Part shown: one piece after another, positions 768 to 63,330 of the stretch
Layout of the letters: the number at the start of each line of letters is the position of its first letter
Numbering within the stretch: the first letter of the stretch is position 1
Sequence record: OV696614
From: Escherichia phage Cyrano
Strand: one strand, 5' to 3'
DNA: 64,000 nucleotides
Translations under genes and position numbers: made by a program
Notes under the pieces: generated by a model
Database searches by the model: none
Seen by the model: the letters and a program-made list of their open reading frames with translations, nothing else
What the model was told of the DNA's origin: nothing

Positions 768-2023
768 TGGCAATCCCGTCCTCGCTCAGTCTTGTGCAAC
801 TGCATTCTGGACAGATGAAAGTCTTCCAGTCTCCGCATCGATTTAAAGTTGTTTGTGCTGGTCGACGCTGGGGAAAATCCCGGTTGTCGATCTCCACTAT
901 TATTCGTGCGGCGGCAAAGGAAAAAAAGCAAAGGGTCTGGTATGTCGCTCCTACTTACCAGATGGCTCGCCAGATTTTGTGGGACGATCTACAGGAAGTT
1001 CTGCCTCGTAAGTGGGTTAGGAAAAAGAACGACACCACGATGACAATCGTGTTGAAGAACGGTTCGGAGATCGCCCTCAAAGGTGCTGATAAGCCTGACA
1101 CTCTGCGCGGCGTAGCGTTGCATTTTGTAGTGCTTGATGAATTTCAAGATATGAAGGCTGACACCTGGTACAAGGTGTTACGACCTACTCTTTCATCGAC
1201 ACGCGGCGGTGCACTGATCATTGGTACGCCAAAAGGCTTCTCGGAATTTCACAAACTGTGGACTATAGGCCAGAACGTAGAGCTGCAAAGAAAGGGACAG
1301 TGGAAGAGCTGGCAGTTTGTAACTGCCGATTCTCCGTTTGTACCTACGGCGGAAATTGAAGCTGCTAAGAACGATATGGACCCGAAATCGTTCGCTCAGG
1401 AGTACCTGGCGAGCTTTGAGAACATGTCCGGGCGCGTTTACTACCCGTTCGATCGTAACGTGCATGTAAAACCGCTTCAGTTCAACCCTCGGTTGCCTAT
1501 ATGGGTAGGGCAGGACTTCAACATTGACCCGATGTCTTCAGTAATTTTGCAACCTCAGCCAAATGGTGAGCTATGGGCAATTGATGAATTGGTGCTCTTT
1601 TCCTCTAACACGGCAGAGGTTTGTGATGAGCTTGAGAGACGCTTCTGGCGCTGGAAATCACAGATAACGGTATTTCCAGATCCGGCAGGTGCTTATCGCC
1701 AACATGCTCGCGGGGAGTCTGACGTCGACATATTCAAAGAGAAGGGATTCTTACGTGTCGATTATTCGAAAAAGCACCCGCCAATTGCGGATCGTGTTAA
1801 TGCTGTTAACCGAATGCTGATGACCGCATCTGGAGATATCCGGCTGTATATCGATCCGAAGTGCAAGCATTTGATTGATTCACTGGAAAAAGTCATCTAC
1901 AAGCCTGGAACACGAGATATGGATAAGACAGGTGGCATTGAGCATAGTGCAGACGCATTGGGCTATCCAGTACATCGTAGGTATCCAGTCAAAAACCGTG
2001 TTATTCTTGGTGGTTCTCGATAG
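767..2023 (+). CDS. terminase large subunit
   Basis: 418 aa; Walker A-like VVCAGRRWGKS and Walker B-like VVLDEFQD; followed by portal gene. Confidence 0.75.
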   Translation: MAIPSSLSLVQLHSGQMKVFQSPHRFKVVCAGRRWGKSRLSISTIIRAAAKEKKQRVWYVAPTYQMARQILWDDLQEVLPRKWVRKKNDTTMTIVLKNGSEIALKGADKPDTLRGVALHFVVLDEFQDMKADTWYKVLRPTLSSTRGGALIIGTPKGFSEFHKLWTIGQNVELQRKGQWKSWQFVTADSPFVPTAEIEAAKNDMDPKSFAQEYLASFENMSGRVYYPFDRNVHVKPLQFNPRLPIWVGQDFNIDPMSSVILQPQPNGELWAIDELVLFSSNTAEVCDELERRFWRWKSQITVFPDPAGAYRQHARGESDVDIFKEKGFLRVDYSKKHPPIADRVNAVNRMLMTASGDIRLYIDPKCKHLIDSLEKVIYKPGTRDMDKTGGIEHSADALGYPVHRRYPVKNRVILGGSR

Positions 2024-2049
2024 GTAAGTAACTATCTAAGGTTATTCAA

Positions 2050-3624
2050 ATGGAATTGAACGACAAACAAATTAAGGATCTGGTGGCGCGACGCCACCCG
2101 GAATACGAAAAGAAAAAAGAACATTGGGACTTCCTCGCCAGCACTTACGCTGGCGGGCGTGGTTGGTTTACAGACAATATCTTTCGTTACTTTAAAGAGG
2201 GAGATCAGGAGTTTAAGGAGCGAGTTGAACGTGCTTATCGCTTCAACCACACTCGTGAGGTGGTAAACCTCATCAACAAATATCTCTTTAAAGAAGACAT
2301 TCATAGAAATATCGAAGAGGCACCAGAGCAGATCCGCAATTTCTGGAAACGTGCGACTCGCCAGAATGCCTCTATTGACTCATTTATGGCCGCTATTGAT
2401 TTGCAGTCGTCTATTTACGGTCGCATATGGGTTGTTGTCGATAGCACGATGAGTGGTGATGTTGAGTCAGTAGCTGACGAGAAAAAGAAAGATGCTCGCG
2501 CCTACGCCTACTGGATTTCACCTCAGCAAATGCTGGATGTGGCATGGGACGACGACGGGAATATGTTGTGGGCGTTAATTGTGGAAGTCGCTCGTGATGA
2601 CGCAGATCCTTTTACTTCTACAGGTCAGGAATACCAACGTTATCGTCTGTGGACACAAAACGAGTGGTATCTGTTCCGTGAGGAAGTGAAGAAGGGCGCT
2701 GGTGGAGCAGGTCGCCGTCAGGCAAAAGTTATTTTAGAGGATAGCGGTGAGCATAATCTCGGCGTAGTTCCTGTGTTTCCTGTTGATTGTATTGGAGAAA
2801 GTGAATCACCGTATTTCAGCCCATCGTTGATCGATGATATCGCTTATCTTGATCGTGCGGTTGCAAACTATCTGTCAAACCTTGATGCCATTATTCAGGA
2901 TCAGACATTTAGCCAGTTGGCTATACCGGTACAGTCGCTTTTACCTGGTGATGAAAACCACACTAAAGTGCTTGAAATGGGCACAAAGCGAGTCTTCACC
3001 TACGATTCTGAAGGTGGAAACCAGCCGTTTTATCTGTCACCAGACCCGAAACAAGCTCAGATGATCATCACTACGATTAAGACGGTGATTAACGAAATCT
3101 ACCATTCAGTTGGTGTAGCTGGTGAGCGAACGAAGCAGGACAACGCACAGGGAATCGATAATTCATCTGGTGCCGCAAAAATGTATGACTTCCAGCGTGT
3201 AAATAGCTTGCTTGTCACAAAAGCAGAGCGTCTGGAAAGGGCTGAACGCCAAATCATGCTACTGGTTGCGAAATGGATGGGGGTAGATCTGGACGAAGAC
3301 CACTCTTTAATTGCATATCCAGAAAGTTTCGATATTCGTGGCCTTACTGATGAATTTTCTGTTGCCGAGAAACTGTCATTACTTCAGGCACCGGACTCTG
3401 TACGTCGTCACCAGATGGAAATGCTTATTGAGAAGATTTTCCCGAACATTACTGAGGCGATGAAAAAGGAATTTGATAAAGATCTCTTGAATTTTCCTCC
3501 AAAAAATGATCTAAATACCCTTGAAAATAAGTCAGTACTTACTTATGATCGTGGTGCAGCCCAAGAAAGCGGGCAAGATCAACCCCGAGGGAATGGGGAC
3601 TCATCTACTCAAGAGAACGAGTGA
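2050..3624 (+). CDS. putative portal protein
   Basis: 524 aa, size and position between terminase and scaffold/capsid genes; RBS AAGG before ATG. Confidence 0.55.
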   Translation: MELNDKQIKDLVARRHPEYEKKKEHWDFLASTYAGGRGWFTDNIFRYFKEGDQEFKERVERAYRFNHTREVVNLINKYLFKEDIHRNIEEAPEQIRNFWKRATRQNASIDSFMAAIDLQSSIYGRIWVVVDSTMSGDVESVADEKKKDARAYAYWISPQQMLDVAWDDDGNMLWALIVEVARDDADPFTSTGQEYQRYRLWTQNEWYLFREEVKKGAGGAGRRQAKVILEDSGEHNLGVVPVFPVDCIGESESPYFSPSLIDDIAYLDRAVANYLSNLDAIIQDQTFSQLAIPVQSLLPGDENHTKVLEMGTKRVFTYDSEGGNQPFYLSPDPKQAQMIITTIKTVINEIYHSVGVAGERTKQDNAQGIDNSSGAAKMYDFQRVNSLLVTKAERLERAERQIMLLVAKWMGVDLDEDHSLIAYPESFDIRGLTDEFSVAEKLSLLQAPDSVRRHQMEMLIEKIFPNITEAMKKEFDKDLLNFPPKNDLNTLENKSVLTYDRGAAQESGQDQPRGNGDSSTQENE

Positions 3625-3645
3625 TAAGTAACAAAAGGAATTTTT

Positions 3646-5434: not shown

Positions 5435-5468
5435 TCAGTGAAGTAGATAAGTAATTATCTATGTTAAA

Positions 5469-5496
5469 GGGTGGGCTATACGCCCACCCTTTTTGT
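5469..5496 (+). terminator. rho-independent terminator after capsid gene
   Basis: GGGTGGGC-tata-CGCCCACCC hairpin followed by TTTTTGT. Confidence 0.7.
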
Positions 5497-9013: not shown

Positions 9014-9087
9014 GTTAATCGGTAAGTATATACTTACTATTAGCGCAATGAATGCGTAGAATTAACGGAAAAAGGAGTTTTCCATCA

Positions 9088-9834
9088 ATGTCTAATACCC
9101 ATGTAAAAAACATCAAACTTGGTGCCTGTAAGGTGTCGTTTGGTGGTGTGGATTTGGGTTACACCAAAGGTGGTGTTCAGGTTGAAGTAGCCACTGAAAC
9201 GCTGAAAGTCACCGTCGATCAGTTGGGGCAGACCGTAATTTCCGAATTAGTTCAGGGGCGCAACATTACCATCACCGCGCCTCTGGCTGAGTCTGTACTC
9301 CAAAACATGGTTGACCTGATGCCTGGTTCTACTCTGAGCGAAGATGACAACTCTGTCACGATCACATCTGCACAGGGCGTTAACCTGATTGATGTGGCGA
9401 AGGAGCTGGTTCTGACTCCGCAGGACACCACCGACTATGTGTTGACCATCCCGAAAGCGGCAACCGCGGGCAACTTCACTATGACCTACCAGTCTGATGA
9501 TGTTCGTGTGTTCTCTGTTCAGTTCAGCGCATACCCGGATGATGAAGGCGTTCTGGGCAAAATGAGCGGCCCTAAACCGGTAAAAACTGTGTCGATCTCA
9601 CCGGAATCTCCAACCGTAAAAGCTGGAGAAACTGTGCAACTGACAGCCGAAATCACTCCAGCTGATGCCGCAGACAAAACCGGTGTTTGGGAATCCGAAG
9701 ACCAGGAAAAGGCCACGGTAGATCAAACGGGTCTGGTACGTGGTGTGGCGCAGGGTTCTACAAATATCTCCTTCACCAGCAATAGCGGTGGTAAGAAGGC
9801 AACTAAGTCAGTAACGATTAATCCCGCAGATTAA
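9088..9834 (+). CDS. putative major tail protein with C-terminal Ig-like domain
   Basis: ATG at 9088 preceded by AAAGGAG; C-terminal ~85 aa is a Big_2-type Ig domain as in many siphovirus tail tube proteins; followed by hairpin terminator and G/T-like genes. Confidence 0.55.
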   Translation: MSNTHVKNIKLGACKVSFGGVDLGYTKGGVQVEVATETLKVTVDQLGQTVISELVQGRNITITAPLAESVLQNMVDLMPGSTLSEDDNSVTITSAQGVNLIDVAKELVLTPQDTTDYVLTIPKAATAGNFTMTYQSDDVRVFSVQFSAYPDDEGVLGKMSGPKPVKTVSISPESPTVKAGETVQLTAEITPADAADKTGVWESEDQEKATVDQTGLVRGVAQGSTNISFTSNSGGKKATKSVTINPAD

Positions 9835-9846
9835 TCAGTAATTAAG

Positions 9847-9875
9847 CAGAGGCTCAGGATGGGCCTCTCTTTTAA
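9847..9875 (+). terminator. putative terminator after major tail gene
   Basis: AGAGGC-tcaggatg-GCCTCT hairpin followed by CTTTTAAAA. Confidence 0.45.
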
Positions 9876-9889
9876 AAGGATTTTAACCA

Positions 9890-10207
9890 ATGACCAAATT
9901 ACTCGATCTCGATTCCATTCTGCCTCCGAAGAAAAGCATCAAATTTGGCGGTCAGGAATATCCCATCGTTGAAATGACGGTAGGTCTGTTCGTTTCCATC
10001 AAGCAGATGGAAGGTAAAGATCTCATGAACATGTCTCCTGTTGAGCAAGTGACAGCTTATGCAGATCTGGTTCGTAAGGTTATCCCTTCAGTACCTGACG
10101 AAGTTCTTGAAAAACTGACTGTTCCGCAACTCCAGCAGATCTTCACCTTCGCTATGGAAGTGATTGATGAAGAAAACGAAAAAGCGGCTGGCGAAGGGGC
10201 AAAGTAA
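9890..10207 (+). CDS. tail assembly chaperone (lambda G-like)
   Basis: 105 aa acidic protein immediately upstream of tape measure gene. Confidence 0.5.
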   Translation: MTKLLDLDSILPPKKSIKFGGQEYPIVEMTVGLFVSIKQMEGKDLMNMSPVEQVTAYADLVRKVIPSVPDEVLEKLTVPQLQQIFTFAMEVIDEENEKAAGEGAK

Positions 10208-15520: not shown

Positions 15521-15602
15521 GTATCTAGATAAGTAAGTACTAATTTACTATTATTGTGGCGCTGACAGGATGTTAGCGCCTACTTATTTCAAGGATGAAA
15601 CA

Positions 15603-22417: not shown

Positions 22418-22510
22418 TGGTGGAAAAAAAATTTTATATCGGTAAAAATAGGTAAGTATTTACTTAATGGCGGGCAAGGATAGCCCGCCAAATCAAGGAG
22501 CATATTCAAC

Positions 22511-26536: not shown

Positions 26537-26738
26537 TTTAGACATTATTTATATGGCTGTGAGGTTTAAAATGCGATCTCACAGCCGCAATCATAGGGAT
26601 ATATTAGTGAGTTACTAGATACGAATTTGAACAGCCGTTAAACGGTATATACATAGATAGGTAAGTACACACCTACAACAAAAGGGTGAAATGTGATATA
26701 AATCCGCCATCCCGATTTGACTTTTCATGGAGGAAAAC

Positions 26739-28988: not shown

Positions 28989-29306
28989 GTATTCCTCCTG
29001 ATGGCCGTGATGTAGGAAGGCCATCAATCTCCTCTGTTCAAACTGAGTTTTCGACTCAAAAATTACTTTAAAAGGCTATAGCCCATTACGTGTGCATTAT
29101 CAAATTGTGTACGGCATATCACCGTACTTGTAATATAGAGGTCATTGTTACTTTTTTCAACAGACAAATACAAGCTATGATTGCCAATTGTTAATCACAA
29201 CCTACCATTTAACCTTTACACCGCAGCCGTAGGCATTTAGGCTATATCACATATAAGAAAACAAGTTGTTTCAGACGATAATTATATACGCAAAGGGAAC
29301 TCTCCA

Positions 29307-31134: not shown

Positions 31135-31157
31135 TATTGGTAGTGTCAACAATTATG

Positions 31158-31218
31158 ACCTGCTTCTGTATATAATAAGTAAATTAGTATTTATATATAT
31201 ACAGAAGCAGGTCTTTTA
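31158..31218 (+). terminator. long perfect inverted repeat / terminator
   Basis: 18 bp arms CCTGCTTCTGTATATATA ... TATATATACAGAAGCAGG, followed by TCTTTTAAA. Confidence 0.5.
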
Positions 31219-31327
31219 AAGACACCCACCAGAACAAGTCCCTTCCGTTTCCACTTCCAAAAACTGCCACCAGTCGCTATCATCCGCTCATTGTGATAAG
31301 TAAGTAACTACCTACCAGGTGAGCCAC

Positions 31328-32068: not shown

Positions 32069-32111
32069 CTAATACTAGAAAACAATTTGTTTAAAAAACA
32101 AAGGAAAGCAC

Positions 32112-34715: not shown

Positions 34716-34790
34716 CAAGTGCCGATAAAATAAGTAGATGATTACTTATCTTTCTGTAAGAATACTTTCATCTGTTAGCTAGGAGTTTGT

Positions 34791-35573: not shown

Positions 35574-35628
35574 TCTCTCAGTGTGTCGTTTTTTACGCAA
35601 AGAATGATAGGTAAGTACAAGATTATTT

Positions 35629-38241: not shown

Positions 38242-39020
38242 AAACATCATGATAAGTATTTACTTACTTATCTTTTATGTATAAGATGACTTTGTTTTCG
38301 TTGAGACGCGACTGTTTGAACTTAAATACAAGTGCAAACGAAGAAGTCTATCTGGCAGTAGCCTAATAAGCCAAACACCAGCGAGGTCAGTTTCCAGCCT
38401 CGTTACCGAAATGGGACACACTGAGCGAGTGTGATTGCAGAACGCAGGAGGGAACATTCATGTTCCCTCCGATGAAGTAACAGAATGGGCGGTTGGTATA
38501 TTTTCAACTCCATATGACTCCCGGATTCTTAGCCACTGACCGCCCATCCTGTTACGTCATTTTGTTCAATTATGTCGTTTATACTGGGTTAAAAAGCGGC
38601 GACGTAGCCCGGCTGGTATGGTTAGCCAGCACACAACGTTGAGGCCATTACATTTTTATCAATTCTAAGGTTCTATTCACAGAGATACCGGCGAGCGTTG
38701 ATATGTAACATGTTGGGCAAACATTCAATCGGAGTAGTGGCCTCAACGTTGTGAAGACGGGATTGTTGTGTAGGTTTAACCACTGTTGCCATTGGTGCCT
38801 GTTTTCACAACAAATGATTCCATACATCACATTGTATAAATTACAAAGTAGGTGCTGTCCTCAGAAACATCATCTACTTAAAGATTTTGCCTTCTACTAT
38901 TGAGCGAAGTCGAAAGCGTCTGGCACTAACGAAAAGTGCAAGTAGCGGTGCGTTTCCTGGCAGAAACTAAACCGTCGCGATTGGCACTGTTGAGTAAAAA
39001 AATACTGGCAGTGCCGAATT

Positions 39021-39095
39021 GATGGTGTAGCTCAGTGGTAGAGCAGTTGGCTGTTAACCAACTGGTCGGTGGTTCGAATCCACCCACCATCGCCA
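39021..39095 (+). tRNA. tRNA-Asn (anticodon GTT)
   Basis: manual fold: acceptor GATGGTG/CACCATC, D-arm GCTC..GAGC, anticodon loop CTGTTAA, T-arm GGTGG-TTCGAAT-CCACC, 3' GCCA. Confidence 0.85.
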
Positions 39096-39097
39096 AT

Positions 39098-39173
39098 GCC
39101 GGTTTAGCTCAGTTGGTAGAGCACCTGCCTTGTAAGCAGGATGTCAGCGGTTCGAATCCGTTAACCGGCACCA
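39098..39173 (+). tRNA. tRNA-Thr (anticodon TGT)
   Basis: manual fold: acceptor GCCGGTT/AACCGGC, anticodon stem CCTGC/GCAGG with loop CTTGTAA, T-loop TTCGAAT, 3' ACCA. Confidence 0.85.
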
Positions 39174-39181
39174 ACACAATT

Positions 39182-39268
39182 GGAGAGTAGAGAGCATGGT
39201 GCTCAAGCGGTCTTGAAAACCGTCCCATTGCGCAAGCGATGATGGTTCGATTCCATTACTCTCCGCCA
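39182..39268 (+). tRNA. tRNA-Ser (anticodon TGA), long variable arm
   Basis: 87 nt; acceptor GGAGAGT/ACTCTCC, anticodon loop CTTGAAA, long extra arm, T-loop TTCGATT, 3' GCCA. Confidence 0.8.
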
Positions 39269-40164: not shown

Positions 40165-40311
40165 CTACAGTGGCTTAAAGACCACTTCACCCTTGCGTTC
40201 AGCTTCAGCTTTAGCAGTCATGAATCGTTTGATCATTTCGACTTTGCTAGCATGGATAGTTTTAAAATCAATCTTCCCTTTGTTTTGGGTAGTGTTGTGT
40301 TCGTATCGCAT
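40165..40311 (-). CDS. possible small protein (48 aa)
   Basis: found by hand; GGAG RBS 6 nt upstream of ATG; overlaps 3' end of the 184 aa gene by 44 nt, so uncertain. Confidence 0.2.
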   Translation of the reverse strand: MRYEHNTTQNKGKIDFKTIHASKVEMIKRFMTAKAEAERKGEVVFKPL

Positions 40312-40822
40312 AGGAAGCTCCGTCATTTAAATAAGTTAGGCCACGCTCTTGTGTAAATCTCTTCACATATCTCTTGTATGTGGCCATCAGTTCTTCGCGT
40401 TCTGCCGCAAAGAATAAAATCTGTATGCCTTCATTGTCGGCAACTTTGAGCATTAAGTCAACTAAAGTACCGTAAAGGTATTGAAGTTCACCTAAAGTAA
40501 GATTAAAAGACCCTTCGGGTTTGGCAAATACGTTAATTGGCTCTTCCGCTCCAAGAGCGACATTCTGGAGCTGTTCTTGCTGCCTGTCAAGTTGAATCAT
40601 GTCCACAAAACTAACGACAGATACACACAACCCATAAACATCAGCACCTAACATATTATGCATAGTTTCTGCGGCAACAGGATCTAAAGAAGGAGGGCAA
40701 AAGACTAAACGGTATCTAGCCTTACGAGCTTCATTGCCAGAGAAAACAAAGTCTATATCTAAATATGACAGATCACCCGGCAATGAAGCCAAACCAGGTG
40801 TAACCAACTTATGCAAGTGCAT
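40268..40822 (-). CDS. hypothetical protein
   Basis: 184 aa, divergent from recombinase gene across an AT-rich region. Confidence 0.4.
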   Translation of the reverse strand: MHLHKLVTPGLASLPGDLSYLDIDFVFSGNEARKARYRLVFCPPSLDPVAAETMHNMLGADVYGLCVSVVSFVDMIQLDRQQEQLQNVALGAEEPINVFAKPEGSFNLTLGELQYLYGTLVDLMLKVADNEGIQILFFAAEREELMATYKRYVKRFTQERGLTYLNDGASYAIRTQHYPKQRED

Positions 40823-41089
40823 CTGTCTCGAATCCCTCTTTATTAGTATAAGTTGTCTTATTGTACCCTACCAAACGTTTATATGCATTGTTATGTATTA
40901 TTTTGATTTTCAATATTACCTCCTAGAACGAAGGGTAGATTTCAAAAAACGCATCCTCAATGATTCCATACCTACTATGTATGGAATCATTACTGAAAAT
41001 GAGTTACTTTTACTCTTGATCCTATAAGAATCTATGCCTAATATACTGTTTACTTATACAGTGCATCGGCGTAACTCGGTGATTGTCAT

Positions 41090-42193
41090 ATGAAAAATAG
41101 CTTTGACAGAGCACGCGCTGCGGAGAACACCTCAAAAGAGGCGATTGAGTATCTCGAAAGAGCATCTCAAATGCAGGCCGTTATGATCTCCCAGGTCAGC
41201 AATGACATGAGATTCTCGGACGCATTCATGTTATTCACTCGCTTATCTCTGCTGATAACAAGACGTCGGCCAGAGATCGCTGTTCATTGTATTTTGATAC
41301 ATGTTTTGCCGCACATTGCCGATGTAAAAGTAAGTGATATTAATAGGTTCATGGTGAACCAACTGGTCAACCCACTAATACTGGATGGCAAAATTGTTAT
41401 GGGTCGCCGCGTTTTCTCTCTGATGAAGCAGTTCCTCAGCTGGTGCGCCTTCCAGGGGATGATCGACGTGTCACCGTTAAACGATATGTCACTTAACAAA
41501 GTTGCCGGTGGCGCAAAGCCCACACCTCGCGAGCGGAAGCTAACCGACGCAGAGGTATGGGTGTTCTGGAATATATGGGACTACTTCAATGTGTGTGCTG
41601 GTACAAAATGGGCGGCCAGGCTATGTCTTGTATCCGCAAGACGACCTGACGAAGTACTGCGGGCTAAAAAAAGTGAGTTCAACCTCCAGCGTGGGGTTTG
41701 GAATCAAGGCAAGAGAAACAAATCAGCCCGTGAGCATTCTCTGCCTTTAAGCACATTAATGCGCACATGCATTGAAGAGTTATTCGAATATGGTAAAGGC
41801 AGCCAGTGGCTTGTGCCTTCGAATAAAAAAATCGGGAAAGATCTTCCGATGTCTAAAGTGGCAATAGCCCAGGCATTACGCCGTATCCTGGAACGACCAG
41901 AACTGATGGAGCTTGAGCCATTTACACCACGAGATTTGCGTCGTACTGCGCGTAGTTACTTCCCAGCATTAGGCATAAGCCAGGAGGTATCACGTAAAAT
42001 CATGAACCACAGTCTTGAGGGGATAGATCGGGTCTACGACCGGCACGATTATATGGACGAGATGCGAGACGCCTTAGAAAGTTTCTCGACGTACATCGCA
42101 TCAATCGTAGAGCAACCGGATTTAGACGAAATTGACCACAAATTTAAGGGAGATCGTCTATCAACAGAGCTTATTCGTGTAAATTTTTCATAG
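41090..42193 (+). CDS. tyrosine recombinase / integrase family protein
   Basis: 367 aa; C-terminal catalytic region with R..R and H....Y spacing (PRDLRRTARSY ... NHSLEGIDRVYDRH) typical of tyrosine recombinases. Confidence 0.65.
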   Translation: MKNSFDRARAAENTSKEAIEYLERASQMQAVMISQVSNDMRFSDAFMLFTRLSLLITRRRPEIAVHCILIHVLPHIADVKVSDINRFMVNQLVNPLILDGKIVMGRRVFSLMKQFLSWCAFQGMIDVSPLNDMSLNKVAGGAKPTPRERKLTDAEVWVFWNIWDYFNVCAGTKWAARLCLVSARRPDEVLRAKKSEFNLQRGVWNQGKRNKSAREHSLPLSTLMRTCIEELFEYGKGSQWLVPSNKKIGKDLPMSKVAIAQALRRILERPELMELEPFTPRDLRRTARSYFPALGISQEVSRKIMNHSLEGIDRVYDRHDYMDEMRDALESFSTYIASIVEQPDLDEIDHKFKGDRLSTELIRVNFS

Positions 42194-42574
42194 AGACTTT
42201 ATGGCCTCAACAACCTTTTGTGATGCGCCTTTCTCTTTACCGAATCGCTCGTTATATGCAGCAAGAACCTGTTTTTCGTCCTCGTTAAGAGGAGCAGTGC
42301 CTTCTTTGTATAAAAATGCTGCGAGTTCGGGTTGGCGTTCTTCCAGCACCATCATCATAAGACGACTTGGCTCAATGCCCAGTGCCAGCGCCAGCGGACG
42401 AACCTTATCGATAGGCAAAGGAATTTTGCCGCTTTTAATTAAAGAAAGGTTGTTGGCGTTTTTATACCCAATTGTTTTGGCTATCTGGGCCTGGCTCATA
42501 GGTGAGGATTCAATCAACCCTGCGATAAAAGCAGCGTAGCGACTTTCTATAAATTCAATCTTGTTATCAGACAT
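42188..42574 (-). CDS. HTH (XRE-type) transcriptional regulator, candidate prophage repressor
   Basis: 128 aa; HTH MSQAQIAKTIGYKNANNLSLIKSGK; divergent/convergent arrangement near recombinase; palindrome GGTAAGTGCTTACC 32 bp upstream of its start. Confidence 0.6.
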   Translation of the reverse strand: MSDNKIEFIESRYAAFIAGLIESSPMSQAQIAKTIGYKNANNLSLIKSGKIPLPIDKVRPLALALGIEPSRLMMMVLEERQPELAAFLYKEGTAPLNEDEKQVLAAYNERFGKEKGASQKVVEAIKSL

Positions 42575-42605: not shown

Positions 42606-42619
42606 GGTAAGTGCTTACC
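42606..42619. promoter_or_regulatory. candidate operator (perfect palindrome GGTAAGTGCTTACC)
   Basis: perfect 14 bp palindrome in the regulator promoter region; related to dispersed GTAAGTA/TACTTAC motifs elsewhere. Confidence 0.45.
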
Positions 42620-42825
42620 GATATTACATCAAAGGTTAGGGTTGTAAAGCTATTATCATTTTTTTCGATAGGCACTTAAAAGACCGGTTAAAGGCCATTG
42701 CACGGAGAAAAATTAGCCCAAAACAGGTAAGAAAATCAACTTGCATATGATATGAATGTATTCAGTATTGATATAAATTTTAGTAGTATTCCTTACCATA
42801 GTATAAGTTAGAATGGATTGATTGA

Positions 42826-43038
42826 ATGAACACCACTATTTCCAGCCTAATCGCTCTTGAGATCGGACACGTACAGAAATTAGTTGATGAGTGTGTAGCT
42901 GACATCCTCACCGATCTACCGAATGAGCAGATTCAGGTTGGTGTGAATGACACAACTGGATTTATATTCGAACTTAACAACAAACGCTTCACGCTTCTCA
43001 ATACCGGCTCCGGGTCTTTAGCCGTCAGAATCTGTTAA
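42826..43038 (+). CDS. hypothetical small protein
   Basis: 70 aa ORF followed by CTGCGCGAA..TTCGCGCAG hairpin. Confidence 0.3.
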   Translation: MNTTISSLIALEIGHVQKLVDECVADILTDLPNEQIQVGVNDTTGFIFELNNKRFTLLNTGSGSLAVRIC

Positions 43039-43136
43039 CCCCTCTTCTCCCTGCGCGAATGGCTTAGTTCCCTGTTCGCGCAGTGCTACATTAAACACAC
43101 TAGTAAATAATTTGTTTTCATAACAAAGGATTAGCC

Positions 43137-45245: not shown

Positions 45246-45340
45246 ACAAAACAGCCTTAACGATAAGTAACCACTTACGATAGATAATGATATATTTATA
45301 TAAGAAGTTGAACGCTCATTAGAAAACAAAGGAAAAACGC

Positions 45341-46576
45341 ATGACTACTACTGCACTGCAAAATGAAAAAAATCCTTCTGATTACCTTGTTTGCAAGTGG
45401 TGCGGAAAATCATTTCACTATTTTAAGTCCCATGTAGCCAATGGTAATTGCGAGGGCATTCCTGAGTCAGTAAAAGATGCCGATCCTGACACCGTACTGA
45501 AAATGTACACAACACAGTTTCCAGATGAGCCAACGCTATCGAAAAAGGCACTTGATGCAATTCAAGCTAAACGTGCCGAGCAAAAAAGCGAAATGGCCAA
45601 ATCATCTGGCGTGACCAGTAGCCCAGGCTACACAGGCACAGTTGAGTACAAGACAGATCTGGTCGCAGCTCACGAACTGCTAAATGTAACGGTGAAAGAA
45701 CTCGGAACAAAACGTGGGACGCCGCTCATGGTTAGCGTCAACGTCAATACGCCGTTTCCAGAGTTCGTTCCAGAAGTGAAGAAGGGCTACGTATATGGCG
45801 ACTTCGAACTGATCAAAGACATTTTCATGATGCTTGAACTTGGCATACCTGGCTATTTGTGGGGTCATGCAGGAACAGGCAAATCGTCATTGCCTACACA
45901 ACTATGTGCTTTGCTCAATCGTCCGTTGATCCGTGCCCAACATACAGCATCAATGGAAGAGGCACATGTTACGGGGCAAATTCTGGCGCGTGATGGCTCT
46001 ACGTATTTCGAGCCTGGCTTGCTTGCGCTCGCAATGAAGCATGGCTGGGTTTACCTCGCGGATGAATACGACTTTGCGTTTCCACAGATTCTTGGCGTGT
46101 ATCAGCCAGTGCTGGAAGGTGAAGCGTTGGTCATCAAAGAGGCGACTCCAGAATGGCGTCGCATTACTCCGCATGAACGGTTTGCTTTCATTGGCACTGG
46201 CAACACGAACGGATCTGGTGATGAAACCGGCTTGTACCAGGGTACAAACATCCAGAACGCCGCGAACTTTTCGCGTTTTGGCATCGTTTCGAATGTGAAA
46301 TACATGAGCAAAGAGGCAGAGATCAACATGTTGATAAATGCCGGTATCGTGGATGAATACGCAGAAAAGATGGTTAAGTTTGCCGGTATCGTTCGCGATG
46401 GATACGAAGAACACCTTATCAGTCAGCCAATTGGCCCTCGTGAACTTTTGTTGTCGGCCAAGATTGGAATGATGCGAGGCGACTTTGTGACAGGTATTGA
46501 GCGTTCTTTCATTAACAAACTCCCTTCAGCTTCTGCACAAGCGGCTCGTGAAGTTGTTCAAAAAATATTTGGTTGA
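45341..46576 (+). CDS. AAA+ ATPase, MoxR/CobS-like
   Basis: 411 aa; Walker A GHAGTGKSS, Walker B VYLADEYD; immediately downstream of vWA gene. Confidence 0.7.
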   Translation: MTTTALQNEKNPSDYLVCKWCGKSFHYFKSHVANGNCEGIPESVKDADPDTVLKMYTTQFPDEPTLSKKALDAIQAKRAEQKSEMAKSSGVTSSPGYTGTVEYKTDLVAAHELLNVTVKELGTKRGTPLMVSVNVNTPFPEFVPEVKKGYVYGDFELIKDIFMMLELGIPGYLWGHAGTGKSSLPTQLCALLNRPLIRAQHTASMEEAHVTGQILARDGSTYFEPGLLALAMKHGWVYLADEYDFAFPQILGVYQPVLEGEALVIKEATPEWRRITPHERFAFIGTGNTNGSGDETGLYQGTNIQNAANFSRFGIVSNVKYMSKEAEINMLINAGIVDEYAEKMVKFAGIVRDGYEEHLISQPIGPRELLLSAKIGMMRGDFVTGIERSFINKLPSASAQAAREVVQKIFG

Positions 46577-46782
46577 TCGTGCGTAAAGGATGTTTCGGCT
46601 CTCTTATCGCTGCTTCTGAAACTGGTAAGGCTTGTCTGGTATGTCCAGACAAGCCCGATTGTCACCAATCAGCAAAAGAAGTTGCGATTTCGATGTATGG
46701 GAAGTTCGTAGGCTTCCCCAATGACAAAATCAAAAAAACCATAAAGGTAAAAACACATGAAAGCACTGATGGTTCGAACTGA
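46573..46782 (+). CDS. possible small Cys-rich protein
   Basis: 69 aa, CLVCPDKPDC motif, non-ATG start, overlaps dnaE start; weak. Confidence 0.2.
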   Translation: MIVRKGCFGSLIAASETGKACLVCPDKPDCHQSAKEVAISMYGKFVGFPNDKIKKTIKVKTHESTDGSN

Positions 46783-51111: not shown

Positions 51112-51675
51112 TTATGCGCATTTCGCAATATCTTTGCGGCGTTTAATCAGTTTCTCCGCAATTTGCTCTATTTCGTTGAAATCTTTCGAGACGCTGTTTC
51201 GAAGCGCCAGATTCCATTTACTCAAAGTTCGGGCATTTTGGACAATTTGATCGCCCTCTTTAAGTCGTCCGTTATTCATGAGCCATTCAGCCACATCAGC
51301 CCAATCCCAGAGAGGAGACTGGCCTTTTATGCGTTGTACAGGGCAAGGGAAGTCGCCGCTTCCGCGCTTACCGTCTTTGAGCAACGCCACTGCCTGGCGA
51401 GACAGGTCTGTCAGTTCCGCGATATCGCTTAAGCCCACAAGAGCCGAGTCGACGGATTCAACAATTGCACCGATACCGGCTGATTCAATATTGTCGACCG
51501 CAGATGCGATAGCTGCATCAAGTGATTGTGCTTCGCGGTCAAATTCTACATAGACGGAGTTTCCATATGCGCAAATTAGCGCATCGTCACAGCCGTTTTG
51601 GTACAGCGCGTCTTCCAGTCCTTCCGTCTCATACGATACGCCTGAGAGCGTCAGAGTGAAGTTATAAAGCGCCAT
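51112..51675 (-). CDS. two-domain regulator: HicB-like N-domain (uncertain) plus AlpA/Xis-type HTH C-domain
   Basis: 188 aa from ATG 51675 (AAGGAA RBS); C-terminal DLSRQAVALLKDG..FPCP....SPLWDWADVAEWL resembles AlpA-type HTH. Confidence 0.4.
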   Translation of the reverse strand: MALYNFTLTLSGVSYETEGLEDALYQNGCDDALICAYGNSVYVEFDREAQSLDAAIASAVDNIESAGIGAIVESVDSALVGLSDIAELTDLSRQAVALLKDGKRGSGDFPCPVQRIKGQSPLWDWADVAEWLMNNGRLKEGDQIVQNARTLSKWNLALRNSVSKDFNEIEQIAEKLIKRRKDIAKCA

Positions 51676-51735
51676 AGTTTTCCTTTGAAGATAGTTGGAC
51701 AGTTTCTGCAAAAGGCGGCTAATGCCGCCTTGAAA

Positions 51736-52645: not shown

Positions 52646-52762
52646 TTTTTGATAGATAATAAGTAAGTACTGATCTATCATTTAACAGCTCGAAAGAGCC
52701 ACGAATGAACGAAAGCCCAACGCGCATAGCGCCATCGGCCAAATCACAACAAGGAGAAACAC

Positions 52763-55064: not shown

Positions 55065-57404
55065 ATGGCAAAAGGAAAATCCGCACTGGCACTTGCTCTG
55101 AAAAAGAAAATCGGTAGCAACGACGAAATTCAGAAAGTAACTCATTGGATTGACACAGGCTTTCCTCCGTTAAACAAAGCTATTTCCGGTCGTTACGATG
55201 GCGGTTTCCCATGTGGTCGTATCGTAGAAGTATTCGGGCCACCAAGCGCGGGGAAATGTGTTACCGCAGACACCATGCTGCTGACGGAGCGTGGAATGGT
55301 AACAGTGAAAGAACTGTTTGAGATTGAGGGGCACAAAGCAACATGCACTACTCGCGATGTAGAGCATAACGTTGGACTCATCAATGAAAATGGCGTGATA
55401 GAGAAGACCTCACACCTGACATGGAACAACCGTCGCAAATTCAAGCGTATTAAGCTGGCATCAGGCGGTTATATCGAGGCTACGTTCCGTCACCCAATCC
55501 GTGTGGTTGACGACTTAGGTAATGTCGTCTGGCGACATGCTGAAAAAATCAGTGTAGGCGACACGATTCCTTCAATGGTTGGCACACATCAATTCGGCGA
55601 TCAGCACCTGGATGCCAATATCGCAAAACTGATGGGCTATTTAATTGCTGACGGATACGTGGCCTCTGAAAATTCAGTGAATTTTTCTAACACAGATCCT
55701 TTCATCAAGGATGAGTACTACCGCCTCATTTCGCTGGTATCAGACAAGATGCCAGTTACGAGAAAACATAACGGCTCGGAAGACCATGTGCTGTTTAGCA
55801 AAGAGGTGCGTTCGCTGCTTTTTAAAGAGTATGGTCTGGAGTATGAGAAAGCTGCTGGCAAGCAGGTTCCGTTGAGTGTGCGTCGCGCCAATAGCGAGGC
55901 TCAAATTGCATTCCTTCGCGGCTACTTTGAGCTGGAATGCCACGTCAATGATGGTCGCTGCATTGAGGTTGTGAGCGCGAGTGGGCTGCTGCTACAGCAA
56001 ATTCGCCTCATGCTCCTGAATCTGGGGATTACGTCAACTATCTCTGAAAAACACGTCGCGGGTTATGAAAATACATATTACCGGCTGTCATTCAGTGGCT
56101 CTAATTACGACCTTTTTCTGTCAACGATTGGTTTCGAATCTCCGGCACGTTTATCAGTGGCAACCAAACGGGACATTGGTTTTGACCGCACTTACTCAGG
56201 CTATGTTCCGCACATCAGCGGCTTAGTGAAATCACTCTACGAGTCGCTCACCAAGACCACCCGTGAAGACTACGCTCTGGTAGACCACGTTATTGGCCGC
56301 GGCGATCGTGTCGGAATAGACAAACTGCGAGAAATCTATGTCTCCTTCATTGGCAGAAAGAATCGTTTTAACGAGCATCTGTTTGCACAACTGGCAGCGG
56401 TAATTGGCTCTAACTTGTTCTACGACGAAGTCGTGGCTATTGAGGAAGGTGAAGCACCAACGTTCGACGTAGCGATGCCGGAAACACACTCTTTCTGGTC
56501 TAACGGGATTATCAGCCACAACACATTCCTTGCAACAGCAGCGATGATCTCCGCTCAAAAACAAGATGGTCTGGCGGTATTCCTCGATCATGAAAACAGT
56601 TTTGACGTTGGCCTGGCTGTAGCCAATGGCCTGAACGCAGATGAGGATGACGGTCAGTGGGTATACAAGCAGCCAGATACCTTCGAAGACTCTGTAGAGT
56701 TGATCGGCACAATACTTAAATTGGTTCGTGATGAAGAGCTTATCCCCGAATCAGCACCTATCTGTATCGTGGCTGACTCTCTTGCGTCTATGGTTCCGAA
56801 CTCCAAAGCCGAGAAGTTCGAAAAGATGGCTGAAGGCACTGCCAAAGACAAAGATCAGCTAAACATGAACGACAATACGGCACTGGCTCGTGCGACGAGT
56901 GCGAACTTCCCTACTCTGGCTTTGTGGGCACGCAAATACAACGCCTGCATCATCTTCTTGAATCAGGTTCGCACAAAAATCGGTGTAATGTTTGGCGACC
57001 CTACTACGTCGCCAGGTGGAGATTCACCGAAGTTTTACGCTTCTGTGCGCATCCGTCTCGGTGCATCGGTGATGAAGGATGGGAAAGAGAAGATCGGCCA
57101 GGACGTAGGCGCAGAATGCATCAAAAACAAAGTTGCACCACCGTATGGCAAATGCACCTGGAAATTCTACTTCGATCCTACTCGTGGCCTCGACGTTATC
57201 GAGTCGCTCGTCGAGTACATGCTGGAAGAAGGATACCTGCCAAAGAACGCCAGCGGGCGAGTTGAAATTGGTGACAAGAAATACACCAAATCGCAGATCG
57301 TCGACATGTATCGGGAGAAGCCATTAGCAGAAATCATTGCTGCGTTACAGGCGATAGATGACCGACGAGAGAAGACATCACCAACAGAAGAACTAGAAGA
57401 TTAA
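55065..57404 (+). CDS. recA: RecA-family recombinase precursor interrupted by an intein
   Basis: exteins: GRIVEVFGPPSAGK / TFLATAAMISAQKQDGLAVFLDHENSFD ... KFYASVRIRLG match RecA/UvsX core; 422 aa insert between P-loop Lys and Thr. Confidence 0.85.
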   Translation: MAKGKSALALALKKKIGSNDEIQKVTHWIDTGFPPLNKAISGRYDGGFPCGRIVEVFGPPSAGKCVTADTMLLTERGMVTVKELFEIEGHKATCTTRDVEHNVGLINENGVIEKTSHLTWNNRRKFKRIKLASGGYIEATFRHPIRVVDDLGNVVWRHAEKISVGDTIPSMVGTHQFGDQHLDANIAKLMGYLIADGYVASENSVNFSNTDPFIKDEYYRLISLVSDKMPVTRKHNGSEDHVLFSKEVRSLLFKEYGLEYEKAAGKQVPLSVRRANSEAQIAFLRGYFELECHVNDGRCIEVVSASGLLLQQIRLMLLNLGITSTISEKHVAGYENTYYRLSFSGSNYDLFLSTIGFESPARLSVATKRDIGFDRTYSGYVPHISGLVKSLYESLTKTTREDYALVDHVIGRGDRVGIDKLREIYVSFIGRKNRFNEHLFAQLAAVIGSNLFYDEVVAIEEGEAPTFDVAMPETHSFWSNGIISHNTFLATAAMISAQKQDGLAVFLDHENSFDVGLAVANGLNADEDDGQWVYKQPDTFEDSVELIGTILKLVRDEELIPESAPICIVADSLASMVPNSKAEKFEKMAEGTAKDKDQLNMNDNTALARATSANFPTLALWARKYNACIIFLNQVRTKIGVMFGDPTTSPGGDSPKFYASVRIRLGASVMKDGKEKIGQDVGAECIKNKVAPPYGKCTWKFYFDPTRGLDVIESLVEYMLEEGYLPKNASGRVEIGDKKYTKSQIVDMYREKPLAEIIAALQAIDDRREKTSPTEELED
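55257..56522 (+). mobile_element. intein with LAGLIDADG homing endonuclease domain inside recA P-loop
   Basis: begins with Cys (GK|CVTADT), ends His-Asn followed by Thr (ISHN|TF); internal LMGYLIADGYV and FLRGYFELECHV blocks. Confidence 0.75.
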
Positions 57405-57408
57405 TTAT

Positions 57409-57433
57409 CAGGCGTCCAAACGGACGCCTTTAT
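57409..57433 (+). terminator. hairpin terminator (GGCGTC family)
   Basis: AGGCGTCC-aaac-GGACGCCT followed by TTATTG. Confidence 0.55.
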
Positions 57434-57497
57434 TGTATGTTGAAAATGTATAAGCACTTACTTATCATTAGCACACAATAACCACATAGGAAAACAC

Positions 57498-58574: not shown

Positions 58575-58746
58575 TCGCAATTATCTTATTAAGAAAACAA
58601 TTTGTTTAAAGGGTTAAGAAAATATAACAGCTATTAAGAAACTCTACGATGCCGCAAACGCGGCTCTGGATGTTATTGATGATGAAGTATCAAAAGGCTT
58701 TCCTGAACCTGATTGGGCGCATCAGCTACGAAACGCTATCGCCGAA

Positions 58747-59049: not shown

Positions 59050-59104
59050 TCGCCTATTCATAACTAACAAAATAAGTAAACACTAACCACAAAAGGAAAA
59101 ACAC

Positions 59105-59380: not shown

Positions 59381-59595
59381 GTTTACAGTAAAATTTATAT
59401 AAGTTAGTATCTACCTATCATGAAGATTTTTATTGAATACTTGTTACTCATCGTTTCAATAGCTTTTGTCATCGACTGCATTTTCACTGGTGTCATTCGT
59501 AAAGTCTTTTCCCCGGTGCACGACGTAGTCATAAACGCTTTGGCTATCGTGCTCGTATTTAATTCAGCATTTGATGTAATCAAAGAGGTGGCAGC

Positions 59596-61734: not shown

Positions 61735-61852
61735 TACAGTGGATAGTAGCACTCATCACAGCGGTTATCCTACCGTCTATAGTGGTTTTTCTCCTCTCTA
61801 TAGTGGTTGCTTTGCTCCCTATAGTGGATTATTCGCTCTCTATAGTGGATAT
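61735..61852. repeat. iteron array upstream of repA (origin iterons)
   Basis: six copies of C(T/C)CTATAGTGG(A/T)T-type repeats at ~21 bp spacing. Confidence 0.7.
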
Positions 61853-61895
61853 CGATCATGTCTGAAGGCAGATGGCACAACGGTTTGAGGTGGGC

Positions 61896-62113
61896 GGGGA
61901 TCTTATTGGGTCTTTATGGGTCTCTTTGGTTCTCTTTGTGATCTGAATTACTGGATCGGGCCTGTGGATAAAAATCAGAGGATTTCAAGAACAGGTAACT
62001 CTACTCTTCTGTGGATATTTAAGGACATAAGAATCATGACTAAGAGTAGAGTTTAAAATATATCTATGTATATCAGTATGTTAATGAAGAATTAAGTCAT
62101 TAAGTTATCCATA
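61896..62113. promoter_or_regulatory. origin-like region: GATC-containing 10-11 bp repeats, DnaA boxes and AT-rich stretch
   Basis: TGTGGATAA (61963-61971, perfect DnaA box), TGTGGATAT (62010-62018), TTATCCATA (62105-62113); AT-rich 62040-62105; GGGTCT/GATCT repeats 61896-61957. Confidence 0.5.
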
Positions 62114-62132
62114 AAAGACAATGTGCTCTACT

Positions 62133-62233
62133 CTCTACAGTGGATATATACAGCTCTCCAGAGTGGTTGTTTTACTCTTCATAGCGGTTATTCAGCTCTC
62201 TACAGAGGTTTCTTTGCTCTCCATAGTGGATGG
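62133..62233. repeat. second iteron array (five copies, ~21 bp spacing)
   Basis: CTCTACAGTGGATAT, CCAGAGTGGTTG, CATAGCGGTTA, CTACAGAGGTT, CCATAGTGGATGG. Confidence 0.65.
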
Positions 62234-62272
62234 CAACACCCTTTCAGACCAGTAACCGCAACGGCTAGAGGC

Positions 62273-62330
62273 GATCGGGGATCTCTTTGGATCTTCTATT
62301 TGATCTTACTTGGGATCTCTTATTTGGATC
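62273..62330. repeat. GATC cluster (six GATC in 58 bp) in ~14 bp repeats
   Basis: GCGATCGGGGATCTCTTTGGATCTTCTATTTGATCTTACTTGGGATCTCTTATTTGGATC. Confidence 0.55.
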
Positions 62331-62431
62331 TATCCAGTGGATAACTGGGATAAGTAAAACAGGCAAATGCAGATTAAGGTATGCCTAATGAGTTATCGTA
62401 GCATCGGCCAATAACTACTGAAAAAACGATT

Positions 62432-63076
62432 ATGGATCTAAAACGCACGCGCTGGGTTCGTCGTCTTGAGGACGGCTCCTACACTATCGAATCAAATTCC
62501 AACCTGAATAAGCAGAAGTTACTTTGTGATATCTGCGGTATAGCGGCGAAGTGCCCGATCTACGAAACCAGAATTAAACTTGATAAGGCTGGTGTGAACT
62601 TTCATTTGAATAGTTGTATCAGGTACGTTCCATTGCTCGCATTTCGTAAACCGATCATCGGATTGGATGCGCCCTACTTCAACACACTCCGTTCAGGAGT
62701 AACGTGGCGAGATCGTTTAACACCAGACAAACTGATTTGCCTTGTATCCGCAGATACAGGAAAAATCATTCGTTTTGGGAAAGTAGACAAGGTTTACTCA
62801 GGCCCAGTTGACGAGATGTTGCGGAAACACAGCCGGTTTAATCACCTCTGCATGGGTGGTGAGAAAATCGAGAAGGTTGAAGAAGTGATCCGCAAATCCT
62901 ACGGACACTTCCTGACCAAAGATAGCCTGCTCACTGCAATCTACATCAGACATGTAAAACGTGAGTTCGACCTTGAATACCATAGCGAAGAAGAACTGAA
63001 CCTTGTCGATCCACGTCCTAAAGCTGGCGTCATAAGCATAAATGCAGCGCGTAAAAAGCCCACTGACGCGCTGTAA
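62432..63076 (+). CDS. hypothetical protein
   Basis: 214 aa, AT-rich, several Cys; no recognisable motif. Confidence 0.35.
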   Translation: MDLKRTRWVRRLEDGSYTIESNSNLNKQKLLCDICGIAAKCPIYETRIKLDKAGVNFHLNSCIRYVPLLAFRKPIIGLDAPYFNTLRSGVTWRDRLTPDKLICLVSADTGKIIRFGKVDKVYSGPVDEMLRKHSRFNHLCMGGEKIEKVEEVIRKSYGHFLTKDSLLTAIYIRHVKREFDLEYHSEEELNLVDPRPKAGVISINAARKKPTDAL

Positions 63077-63330
63077 CCCTCCAGATCGTATATTGGCGTA
63101 GATAGAATCTACGCCCCCTCAAAATAGCTCTCATAGCGTTCTACAGTGATCCAGTCTTATTTTTAGTCATACAGACAAGCAAAGTTGCGCCACGATAAAT
63201 AGGTATATACTTACTTATAAATTTTGTATATTAAGGCGCTCGTTTCATTCCTAACATACCGTTATGCATAGTTGTTTACCTCCTCATTGCTCTTAGAATT
63301 TGTATCAAAATAACCACAAAGGAAAAACAC

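Follow-up and report, generated by a model that had tools for sequence, protein, structure and literature searches.

The Escherichia phage Cyrano (pLF82, sequence record OV696614), a 108-kb SSU5-like phage-plasmid of the adherent-invasive E. coli LF82, carries a genuine family of palindromic sites with the core TAAGTA-N(2-6)-TACTTA, confirmed here in the 64,000-nucleotide stretch that was analyzed (the window). Judged from sequence, and with moderate confidence, these are sites for one element-encoded dimeric protein acting at the starts of lytic transcription units, most likely the candidate repressor CYRAN_45. What is seen directly is the motif with its placement, conservation, lineage-specific change and promoter-like surroundings; binding by a protein, repression as opposed to activation, and which protein binds are inferred. 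An earlier note on this DNA had proposed either the operators of one dimeric regulator or a family of element-specific promoters; both ideas appear to be partly right, in that the motif is a lineage-specific word embedded in promoter-like sequence. The window is 97-99% identical to E. coli plasmids of the SSU5 phage-plasmid family. Gene positions follow S1 Table of Misson et al. 2023 (PMC9928086), with which the open reading frame (ORF) coordinates of the window are identical (e.g. 135-767; 2050-3624; the integrase, 41090-42193; and the "putative repressor" CYRAN_45, 42574-42188). Nearly all window genes lie on the plus strand, ordered as terminase, head and tail genes (1-26.5 kb), lysis, toxin-antitoxin and parA genes, replication genes, tRNAs, the integrase with a helix-turn-helix gene, CobT/MoxR/DnaE, HicAB, recombination genes and repA.

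A motif instance is present at all 15 positions listed in the earlier note, and the count of at least 15 copies given there becomes 17-20 clusters in the window when a weight matrix is used. Matrix matches at 13 bits or more number 44, versus 0.6 in shuffled sequence, a ratio to be taken as an upper view since the matrix was trained on the same sites. The exact pattern TAAGTA-N(2-6)-TACTTA is found 4 times (0.01 expected) and GGTAAGTA 6 times (1.0 expected), and a Gibbs sampler working de novo on intergenic DNA only recovered the same 20-mer from 12 of 12 seeds. Eighteen of the 20 site clusters fall in non-coding DNA, which amounts to 11.7% by the published gene map (binomial p = 2.6e-15). Some details of the earlier description needed amendment. 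A strong site (3524-3547), a half-site (59069-59088) and a motif-like hairpin loop (31178-31199) had been overlooked, and the listed 35604-35620, like the unlisted 59069-59088, is essentially a left half-site only. Start codons follow the end of the motif at distances of 0-111 bp (median ~40) rather than 20-70 bp, and one site stands before a tRNA cluster, not a protein gene.

The consensus is TARGTAAGTA-NN-TAYYTAYC (letter by letter, T-A-R-G-T-A-A-G-T-A-N-N-T-A-Y-Y-T-A-Y-C). It scores on both strands with a 2-bp offset and is therefore a palindrome, the left arm of which is better conserved than the right. Since TA recurs every 4 bases (TARG TAAG TA nn TA CTTA CYTA), each full site contains stop codons (TAG/TAA) in all three frames of both strands. 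Arms are separated by N2 in all strong sites except that at 34727, where the spacing is N6, and a variant 4 bp shorter is also seen, as in TATAAGCACTTACTTATC.

Many of the sites are intimately associated with promoter-like sequences. Of the few sigma-70-like matches on the plus strand between 1 and 60 kb, 7 of 15 overlap motif sites, the overlapping pairs being located at 3521, 9005, 15526, 52653, 57440 and 59382/59394. When sites are aligned by their left arms, positions 17-22 read TAYNAT, with T at the last position in 11/17 sites (p = 6e-4; 9/17, p = 0.013, when the register is not chosen). The mirror hexamer is absent at the matching position on the opposite strand of the sites. A -10-like hexamer on one side only makes the sites directional, the right arm entering a rightward -10. 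In two Cyrano sites the palindrome is the spacer of a complete promoter (TTGAAA-17-TATGAT and TTGAAA-17-TATCAT), an arrangement that is common in the Acinetobacter lineages described below (TTGAAA-18-TATACT, TTTAAA-18-TATCTT, CTGAAA-18-TATAAT). At 34727, 38249, 45260 and 63194 a conserved -10-like element (TGTAAGAAT, TATAAGAT or TATAAG) lies 12-25 bp downstream of the motif.

The complete element, represented by a complete plasmid 99.4% identical to Cyrano, contains 29 sites, those beyond the window preceding nrdA, thymidylate synthase, adenine methylase and parB genes, among others. Conservation of the motif in related elements was likewise borne out: SSU5 and two Klebsiella lineages have it at positions orthologous to those of Cyrano. 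Salmonella phage SSU5 (~80% identity) has ~28 sites at the same junctions, as counted in a matrix scan of all but its last 3.3 kb, where only ParB/ABC-type genes are annotated; the central bases of these sites vary and the palindrome is kept. The same word occurs in Klebsiella phage pJN2-26 and Klebsiella plasmid pRHBSTW-00636_4. Alignments of four junctions show the motif and its nearby -10-like element as conserved islands within diverged spacers.

Other related elements share the architecture and use words of their own. In the Acinetobacter baumannii phage-plasmid NZ_CP143349 the word is (A)TCAGTCAGTACTGAC, and in NZ_CP096726 it is ATTAGTAAGCGCTTACT (core given as AGTAAGCGCTTACT). Within E. 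coli, five orthologous junctions of a lineage represented by contig ABZCOC010000014 (P0032, with the TATG word) read TATGTATGTA where Cyrano reads TAAGTAAGTA, the change being mostly in the left arms; no complete plasmid of the P0032 lineage was found in plasmid or E. coli collections. The occurrence of two words within one Acinetobacter species and two within E. coli indicates that the reader of the motif is encoded by the element and is not a host protein. A host factor reading a Fur-like or LexA-like box was rejected on the same ground, the word differing between lineages of one host species. A phage RNA polymerase or sigma factor of the element was also considered and rejected: none is annotated in a 110-kb relative, and no Pfam or PHROG match was obtained among the proteins scanned. 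In the Acinetobacter phage-plasmids, a gene for a sigma factor of the sigma-70 family does lie between those for the MoxR-like ATPase and DnaE (15101-15766 in L012, 14900-15583 in L010). Neither SSU5 nor the E. coli element gave a homolog of it; in the latter, only a 69-aa ORF (window 46573-46782) fills its position.

The best candidate for the reader is CYRAN_45, a 128-aa protein with an XRE-type helix-turn-helix encoded on the minus strand at 42188..42574. It matches the PHROG 8 family "transcriptional regulator" (E = 1.3e-11) and, under the 30.2-bit cut-off, the Pfam domain HTH_19 (E = 7.8e-4, 19.7 bits); a sequence search of the PDB gave no match. Its AlphaFold model (predicted local distance difference test score, pLDDT, 79) is helical over residues 12-80 and shows the five-helix XRE fold. 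The nearest structures are the dimeric controller proteins C.BclI and C.AhdI, the antitoxin HigA, the 434 repressor N-domain, SinR and Stl, with E values of only 5e-3 to 8e-2 over ~70 residues. The gene is convergent with the tyrosine recombinase (integrase) gene, which it overlaps by 6 bp, and divergent from CYRAN_46 (42826..43038, plus strand), a 70-aa product in a Cro-like position whose expression rises about 90-fold in macrophages. This layout is kept in Klebsiella and Acinetobacter relatives, and both CYRAN_45 and the integrase are present in every plasmid-form relative, Acinetobacter included. Homologs of CYRAN_45 occur in 994 plasmid records, among which are pHCM2, pMT1 and phage-plasmids of Acinetobacter.

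The recognition helix of these proteins, GYKN(A/P)NNLSLIKSGK, is nearly invariant among enterobacterial homologs down to 55% identity, which fits the TAAG word that they share. One of its residues appears to track the motif word across four lineages: helices starting KN, EN or -N (Cyrano, two Klebsiella lineages and Acinetobacter NZ_CP096726) accompany the unit TAAG, KY accompanies TATG (the P0032 lineage) and KR accompanies TCAG (Acinetobacter NZ_CP143349). The switch that this would imply, from an asparagine-adenine to an arginine-guanine contact, would be chemically sensible. A predicted sigma-70-type promoter of CYRAN_45 (TTTACA-16-TAATAT, 42621..42648, minus strand) carries at about its +1 a shorter palindrome, GGTAAG-TG-CTTACC (42606..42619, minus strand), and this arrangement is also found in Klebsiella, conserved as GGTAA-N4-TTACC. 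The earlier note had placed the element, GGTAAGTGCTTACC, in the promoter of the helix-turn-helix gene and called it a perfect palindrome, which it is not, as 6-bp arms flank a non-symmetric TG centre. A different helix-turn-helix gene (51112..51711) was discarded as immunity repressor, being the HicB antitoxin next to HicA (Misson et al.) and absent from Klebsiella pJN2-26.

Two further elements were noted in this switch region. Between the repressor gene and CYRAN_46, at 42720-42745, Cyrano has GGTAAG-N8-CTTGC, and the matching position of the TATG-word lineage (intergenic region 9732-10000) has CATGTA-N6-TACATAG; comparison of the two suggests that the switch region may have here another operator that co-varies with the word. 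Also, a LexA-box-like element outside the motif family (TACTGTTTACTTATACAGT, 41044..41062, plus strand) precedes the integrase gene by 28 bp; two other lineages conserve it ahead of their integrase. Expression of the integrase goes from log2 5.6 to 10.3 in macrophages. As its gene converges on and overlaps that of the repressor, SOS-induced read-through could act antisense on the latter.

Published per-gene RNA sequencing (RNA-seq) values for lysogens in lysogeny broth (LB) and for macrophages at 6 h were examined with respect to the sites. In LB lysogens lytic genes are at background (about 5-12; median 9.8), and the genes that are on are the toxin-antitoxin genes, the parA operon, repA, the integrase (49.5) and CYRAN_45 (95.8, 10-fold over background). 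No motif site was found at the promoters of the lysogeny-expressed toxin-antitoxin pairs, parA, repA or int. CYRAN_34, behind the oddly spaced N6 site at 34727, is leaky in the LB lysogen (43.7 versus the background of 9.8). In macrophages, expression steps up from CYRAN_11 to CYRAN_12 at site 9019 (log2 5.9 to 8.4), from CYRAN_55 to CYRAN_56 at site 57447 (log2 4.1 to 7.7, ~12-fold) and from CYRAN_59 to CYRAN_60 at site 59400 (log2 5.0 to 8.6). Drops occur from CYRAN_34 to CYRAN_35 at site 35604 (5- to 20-fold, to background, with no evident terminator), from CYRAN_64 to CYRAN_65 across the 63194 site (4- to 12-fold, no canonical terminator) and at the junctions 30->31, 5->6 and 16->17. Individual junctions alone are informative here, and the steps illustrate the repressor model rather than prove it. 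Cyrano is induced 39-fold by ciprofloxacin (PMC9928086).

A site consists of an A-rich stretch and two arms, TARG TAAG TA on the left and TA CTTA C on the right, with two free bases between them; the final TA of the right arm is the first TA of the -10-like hexamer TAYNAT. On the reading of CYRAN_45 as repressor, bound protein would occupy the promoter spacer and the -10 edge, roughly from -28 to -11, and at some sites would sit just upstream or downstream of a -10. In this way CYRAN_45 could block RNA polymerase at ~29 promoters simultaneously and, at a few sites, also stop polymerases coming from upstream. Replication, nucleotide-metabolism, structural and lysis genes would thereby be silenced, and plasmid-maintenance genes, having no site, would stay on.

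Several observations weigh against this proposal. No -35 is recognisable at about half of the Cyrano and SSU5 sites, and a TG extension is lacking at most Cyrano sites, which together with the missing -35 is the signature of activator-dependent promoters. Four sites (2019, 31295, 35604 and 59396) lie 0-9 bp before the start codon, so that a normal leader is impossible there. The missing -35s, the downstream -10s and these start-proximal sites imply that site geometry is not uniform, and a rigid dimer would account neither for the 4-bp periodicity nor for the N2/N6 variation in spacing. Over all junctions, the expression change at motifs does not differ significantly from that at other intergenic junctions (p = 0.06-0.8). 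Regarding CYRAN_45 itself, the arms of the palindrome at its promoter are closer together by 4 bp than those of the main family, and this palindrome stays GGTAA-N4-TTACC in the P0032 lineage despite the changed genome-wide word. SSU5, which was isolated as a free phage, lacks the whole integrase/helix-turn-helix block yet keeps the sites; CYRAN_45 is thus not needed for lytic growth. Finally, the FljA-like CYRAN_114 (PHROG 1444 "transcriptional repressor"), encoded outside the window and present in SSU5 and all enterobacterial relatives at 66-80% identity, could be a second candidate reader of the motif; no FljA-like homolog was detected in the Acinetobacter plasmids with the same architecture. 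The proposal of the earlier note that gene 42188..42574 encodes the cognate regulator is consequently retained as plausible, with fold, lysogen expression, conservation and the helix residue in its favour and the own-promoter palindrome and SSU5 against it.

The main alternative is that the sites are activator-dependent lytic promoters, in which the palindrome replaces the -35 and an element-encoded activator recruits host RNA polymerase in the manner of P1 Lpa; the binder would then be a protein also present in SSU5, such as CYRAN_114 or an unannotated small protein. This we regard as unlikely. In its favour, most Cyrano and SSU5 sites have the -10-like hexamer with only 2-3/6 matches at -35 and no TG, the geometry of motif and hexamer is fixed in many sites, expression steps up at sites under stress, and SSU5, a working lytic phage, keeps every site without CYRAN_45 while sharing the FljA-like regulator with all enterobacterial relatives. 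However, several sites are themselves near-consensus sigma-70 promoters, here and in Acinetobacter, whose plasmids gave no FljA-like homolog, and the distance to the best -10 varies, reaching 12-25 bp at the four sites named above. The dyad centre is at about -18, a position from which activators other than MerR types are not known to act. Early genes as well as late ones are preceded by sites, and the leaky site is the aberrantly spaced one, a better fit to lost repression than to lost activation.

A bound protein might instead mainly halt elongating polymerases within the co-directional gene array, leaving initiation aside, as the L5 repressor gp71 does at stoperators. Such roadblocks are compatible with repression by CYRAN_45, and are rather improbable as the principal function. 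Sites do lie in short intergenic gaps of all modules, structural genes included, several are too near the next start codon for promoters, and the drops at 34->35 and 64->65 without canonical terminator, together with those at 30->31, 5->6 and 16->17, are of the kind that roadblocks would cause. The repressor-less SSU5 with its sites also parallels lytic D29, which is described as derived by deletion from a temperate parent (PMC5712189). Nevertheless, Cyrano sites are palindromic, whereas L5 stoperators are asymmetric and oriented (PMC9283540), several drops have a hairpin or terminator beside them, the test over all junctions gave no significant difference, and neither a directional -10 hexamer nor promoter-like spacing would be necessary. 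Very little probability is given to an RNA-level signal, that is, the palindrome acting as an mRNA hairpin in processing, stability or translation. All sites are on the coding strand just before ribosome-binding sites, and those at 5440, 9015 and 38245 fold better than shuffles (z = -3.1 to -5.7), but the hairpins are weak (-3 to -8 kcal/mol), the pairing register differs, TAAGTA being base-paired at some sites and part of the loop elsewhere, and orthologs conserve sequence without compensatory changes. Moreover, half-sites exist and the start-codon distance spans 0-111 bp. Scarcely credible, finally, is a role in recombination or module exchange, as core sites of the adjacent tyrosine recombinase or as mobile promoter cassettes: the layout of arms plus spacer resembles recombinase core sites and the integrase always adjoins the helix-turn-helix gene, yet with ~29 direct copies the genome would be lost by deletion, the lineages have their genes in colinear order and SSU5 keeps the sites without an integrase.

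The individual sites, all on the plus strand, are distributed as follows. The first, GATAGGTAAGTAACTATCTAAG (2019..2040), overlaps the terminase stop codon, which is part of the motif (2019-2023), and ends 9 bp before the portal ATG at 2050; its SSU5 ortholog is at 2028-2051. The site in the 3' end of the portal gene (3524..3547) is the spacer of TTGAAA-17-TATGAT (3521..3549) and is identical in SSU5 at 3541-3564. Site TAGATAAGTAATTATCTATG (5442..5463) lies between the major capsid gene and a G+C hairpin that has a T run (5469-5490). Site TCGGTAAGTATATACTTACTAT (9019..9040) lies within TTGAAT-18-TATACT, and of its neighbours the downstream CYRAN_12 rises in macrophages and the upstream CYRAN_11 does not; TAGATAAGTAAGTACTAATTTACT (15526..15549) is followed by TATTAT and a hairpin (15558-15580). 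The tail fibre gene is preceded by AAAATAGGTAAGTATTTACTTAATGG (22445..22470) and the holin/lysis genes by GATAGGTAAGTACACACCTACA (26656..26677). Site GATAAGTAAGTAACTACCTACCAG (31295..31318), 9 bp before CYRAN_31, is downstream of the expressed parA operon. The site with unusual N6 spacing, TAAGTA-GATGAT-TACTTA (34727..34752), is followed by the conserved TGTAAGAAT and then by CYRAN_34, and the left half-site ATGATAGGTAAGTACAAGATTATT (35604..35627) marks the CYRAN_34/CYRAN_35 junction. Upstream of the tRNA cluster (39021-39268) lies ATGATAAGTATTTACTTACTTATCTT (38249..38274), followed by TATAAGAT.

In the second part of the window, ACGATAAGTAACCACTTACG (45260..45279) precedes a MoxR/CobS-like ATPase gene, its motif and downstream TATAAG being conserved in four lineages, and GATAGATAATAAGTAAGTACTGATCTATCAT (52651..52681), before a gene for a gp32-like single-stranded DNA-binding protein (SSB), is conserved across Cyrano, SSU5 and Klebsiella pJN2-26. 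The promoter-like TTGAAA-17-TATCAT with TATAAGCACTTACTTATC as its spacer (57440..57468) comes just after a terminator (57410-57429). The left half-site AAAATAAGTAAACACTAACC (59069..59088) precedes CYRAN_59, TATATAAGTTAGTATCTACCTATCAT (59396..59421) is associated with TTTATA-16-TATCAT, and GATAAATAGGTATATACTTACTTATA (63194..63219) stands before an SbcD-like gene (63331). G+C-rich hairpins were observed 5-10 bp after several sites (5469-5490, 15558-15580, 22469-22489 and 52688-52700), and a transcript from the adjoining -10 would begin inside such a hairpin or at its 5' arm. The hairpins could terminate read-through from upstream yet spare transcripts begun at the site. Downstream of the parA operon, a hairpin at 31150-31210 has 18-bp arms (GACCTGCTTCTGTATATA / TATATACAGAAGCAGGTC) and a T run, and its loop holds the weak motif-like ATAAGTAAATTAGTATTTA (31178-31199).

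Other features of the element were recorded along the way. Matches to another palindromic family, GAAAACAAnTTGTTT, number 11 where 1.2 would be expected (among them 55-69, 80-96, 29257-29273, 32078-32094, 43103-43119 and 58593-58609), and this family is found 34-55 bp before the start codons of terS, parA, a DnaB-like helicase gene, a CobT-like gene and CYRAN_58. It also occurs in Klebsiella pRHBSTW-00636_4 and the TATG-word E. coli lineage; a second global regulator might bind it, or it might work at the level of RNA. The RecA-like gene at 55065-57404 owes the length of its product, 779 aa, to an intein that includes a LAGLIDADG endonuclease domain; the homologs of SSU5 and the E03 plasmid are intein-free and about 358 aa long. 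CYRAN_43 (40268-40822, minus strand; 184 aa, PHROG 28788, no Pfam match, function unknown) is by far the top gene of the element in lysogens, at ~720-fold over the prophage background.

No description of the motif was found in the searchable literature. The closest systems in logic are the C1 operator network of P1 and the operator/stoperator system of L5, and Cyrano belongs to neither. Like Cyrano, P1 is a plasmid prophage in which one repressor has many operators over ~100 kb, overlapping the promoters of separate operons; the Cyrano counterparts are the dispersed operator-like sites at operon promoters (17-20 in the window and 29 in the whole element, with 7 overlapping sigma-70-like matches). 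The P1 C1 operator is an asymmetric 17-mer, and its consensus, ATTGCTCTAATAAATTT, has no match in the window at up to 3 mismatches. Unlike C1, the candidate protein of Cyrano is an XRE helix-turn-helix, and Cyrano sites also stand before structural and lysis genes, a class that Lpa controls in P1. The Lpa-dependent late promoters of P1, found ahead of several operons, combine a -10 that has no -35 with an inverted repeat directly upstream of it. Cyrano resembles them in part, in the -10-like hexamer that abuts the right arm in 11/17 sites with a mostly poor -35, and differs in a dyad centre at about -18 instead of -22, in some sites with a good -35, in others with the -10 further downstream and in the presence of sites before SSB, ATPase, nrdA, thymidylate synthase, methylase and tRNA genes. 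In the Streptomyces phage phiC31, a 17-bp inverted repeat at many loci by phage promoters is bound by the c repressor, a lysogeny repressor of the sort proposed for Cyrano; those repeats are confined to early-region promoters, however, and protein, motif and host are unrelated to Cyrano's.

The cluster A phages such as L5, with their repressor gp71, carry 20-30 sites in each genome, spread over the short intergenic regions of every module, by which the whole prophage is silenced, and their repressor and site variants define immunity groups (PMC9283540, PMC6550527). A further likeness is that a lytic relative without the repressor still has the sites (D29 there, SSU5 for Cyrano). Cyrano sites, too, are intergenic in early and late modules, but they are not asymmetric elements in one orientation. 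L5 sites are 13 bp long, asymmetric, oriented and bound by a monomer with two DNA-binding domains, whereas those of Cyrano are palindromic and fused to -10-like hexamers, and the candidate protein is of a small XRE type. Coliphage T1 and Citrobacter phage Stevie have 16 to 20 copies of a 22-bp intergenic repeat, likened by the authors to stoperators and of unknown function (PMC4319613); these are multi-copy intergenic repeats of enterobacterial siphophages, but the repeats are asymmetric, the phages strictly lytic and the sequence unrelated to the Cyrano motif. The Cyrano motif is a new variation on the design of one repressor with many dispersed operators.

Among clinical isolates of E. coli, Klebsiella, Salmonella, Enterobacter and Yersinia pestis, a sizeable share harbours SSU5-like phage-plasmids. 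Resistance genes can ride on these elements (PMC9600943, PMC12217456), and their lysis-lysogeny control is essentially unstudied. Tentatively, the observations may be joined in a single scheme in which CYRAN_45 silences the 108-kb element via ~29 operator-spacers, changes of a single residue in the recognition helix, matched by changes of the 4-bp unit (TAAG, TATG, TCAG), would divide the SSU5 supergroup and the phage-plasmids of Acinetobacter into immunity groups, and antisense transcription from the LexA-controlled convergent integrase gene would bring about induction. An operator word, a candidate repressor and a map of ~29 promoters make this control directly testable, and immunity groups would be predictable from sequence through the operator words. 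The lineage-specific words would also offer a compact natural series of repressor specificity changing together with a whole operator set.

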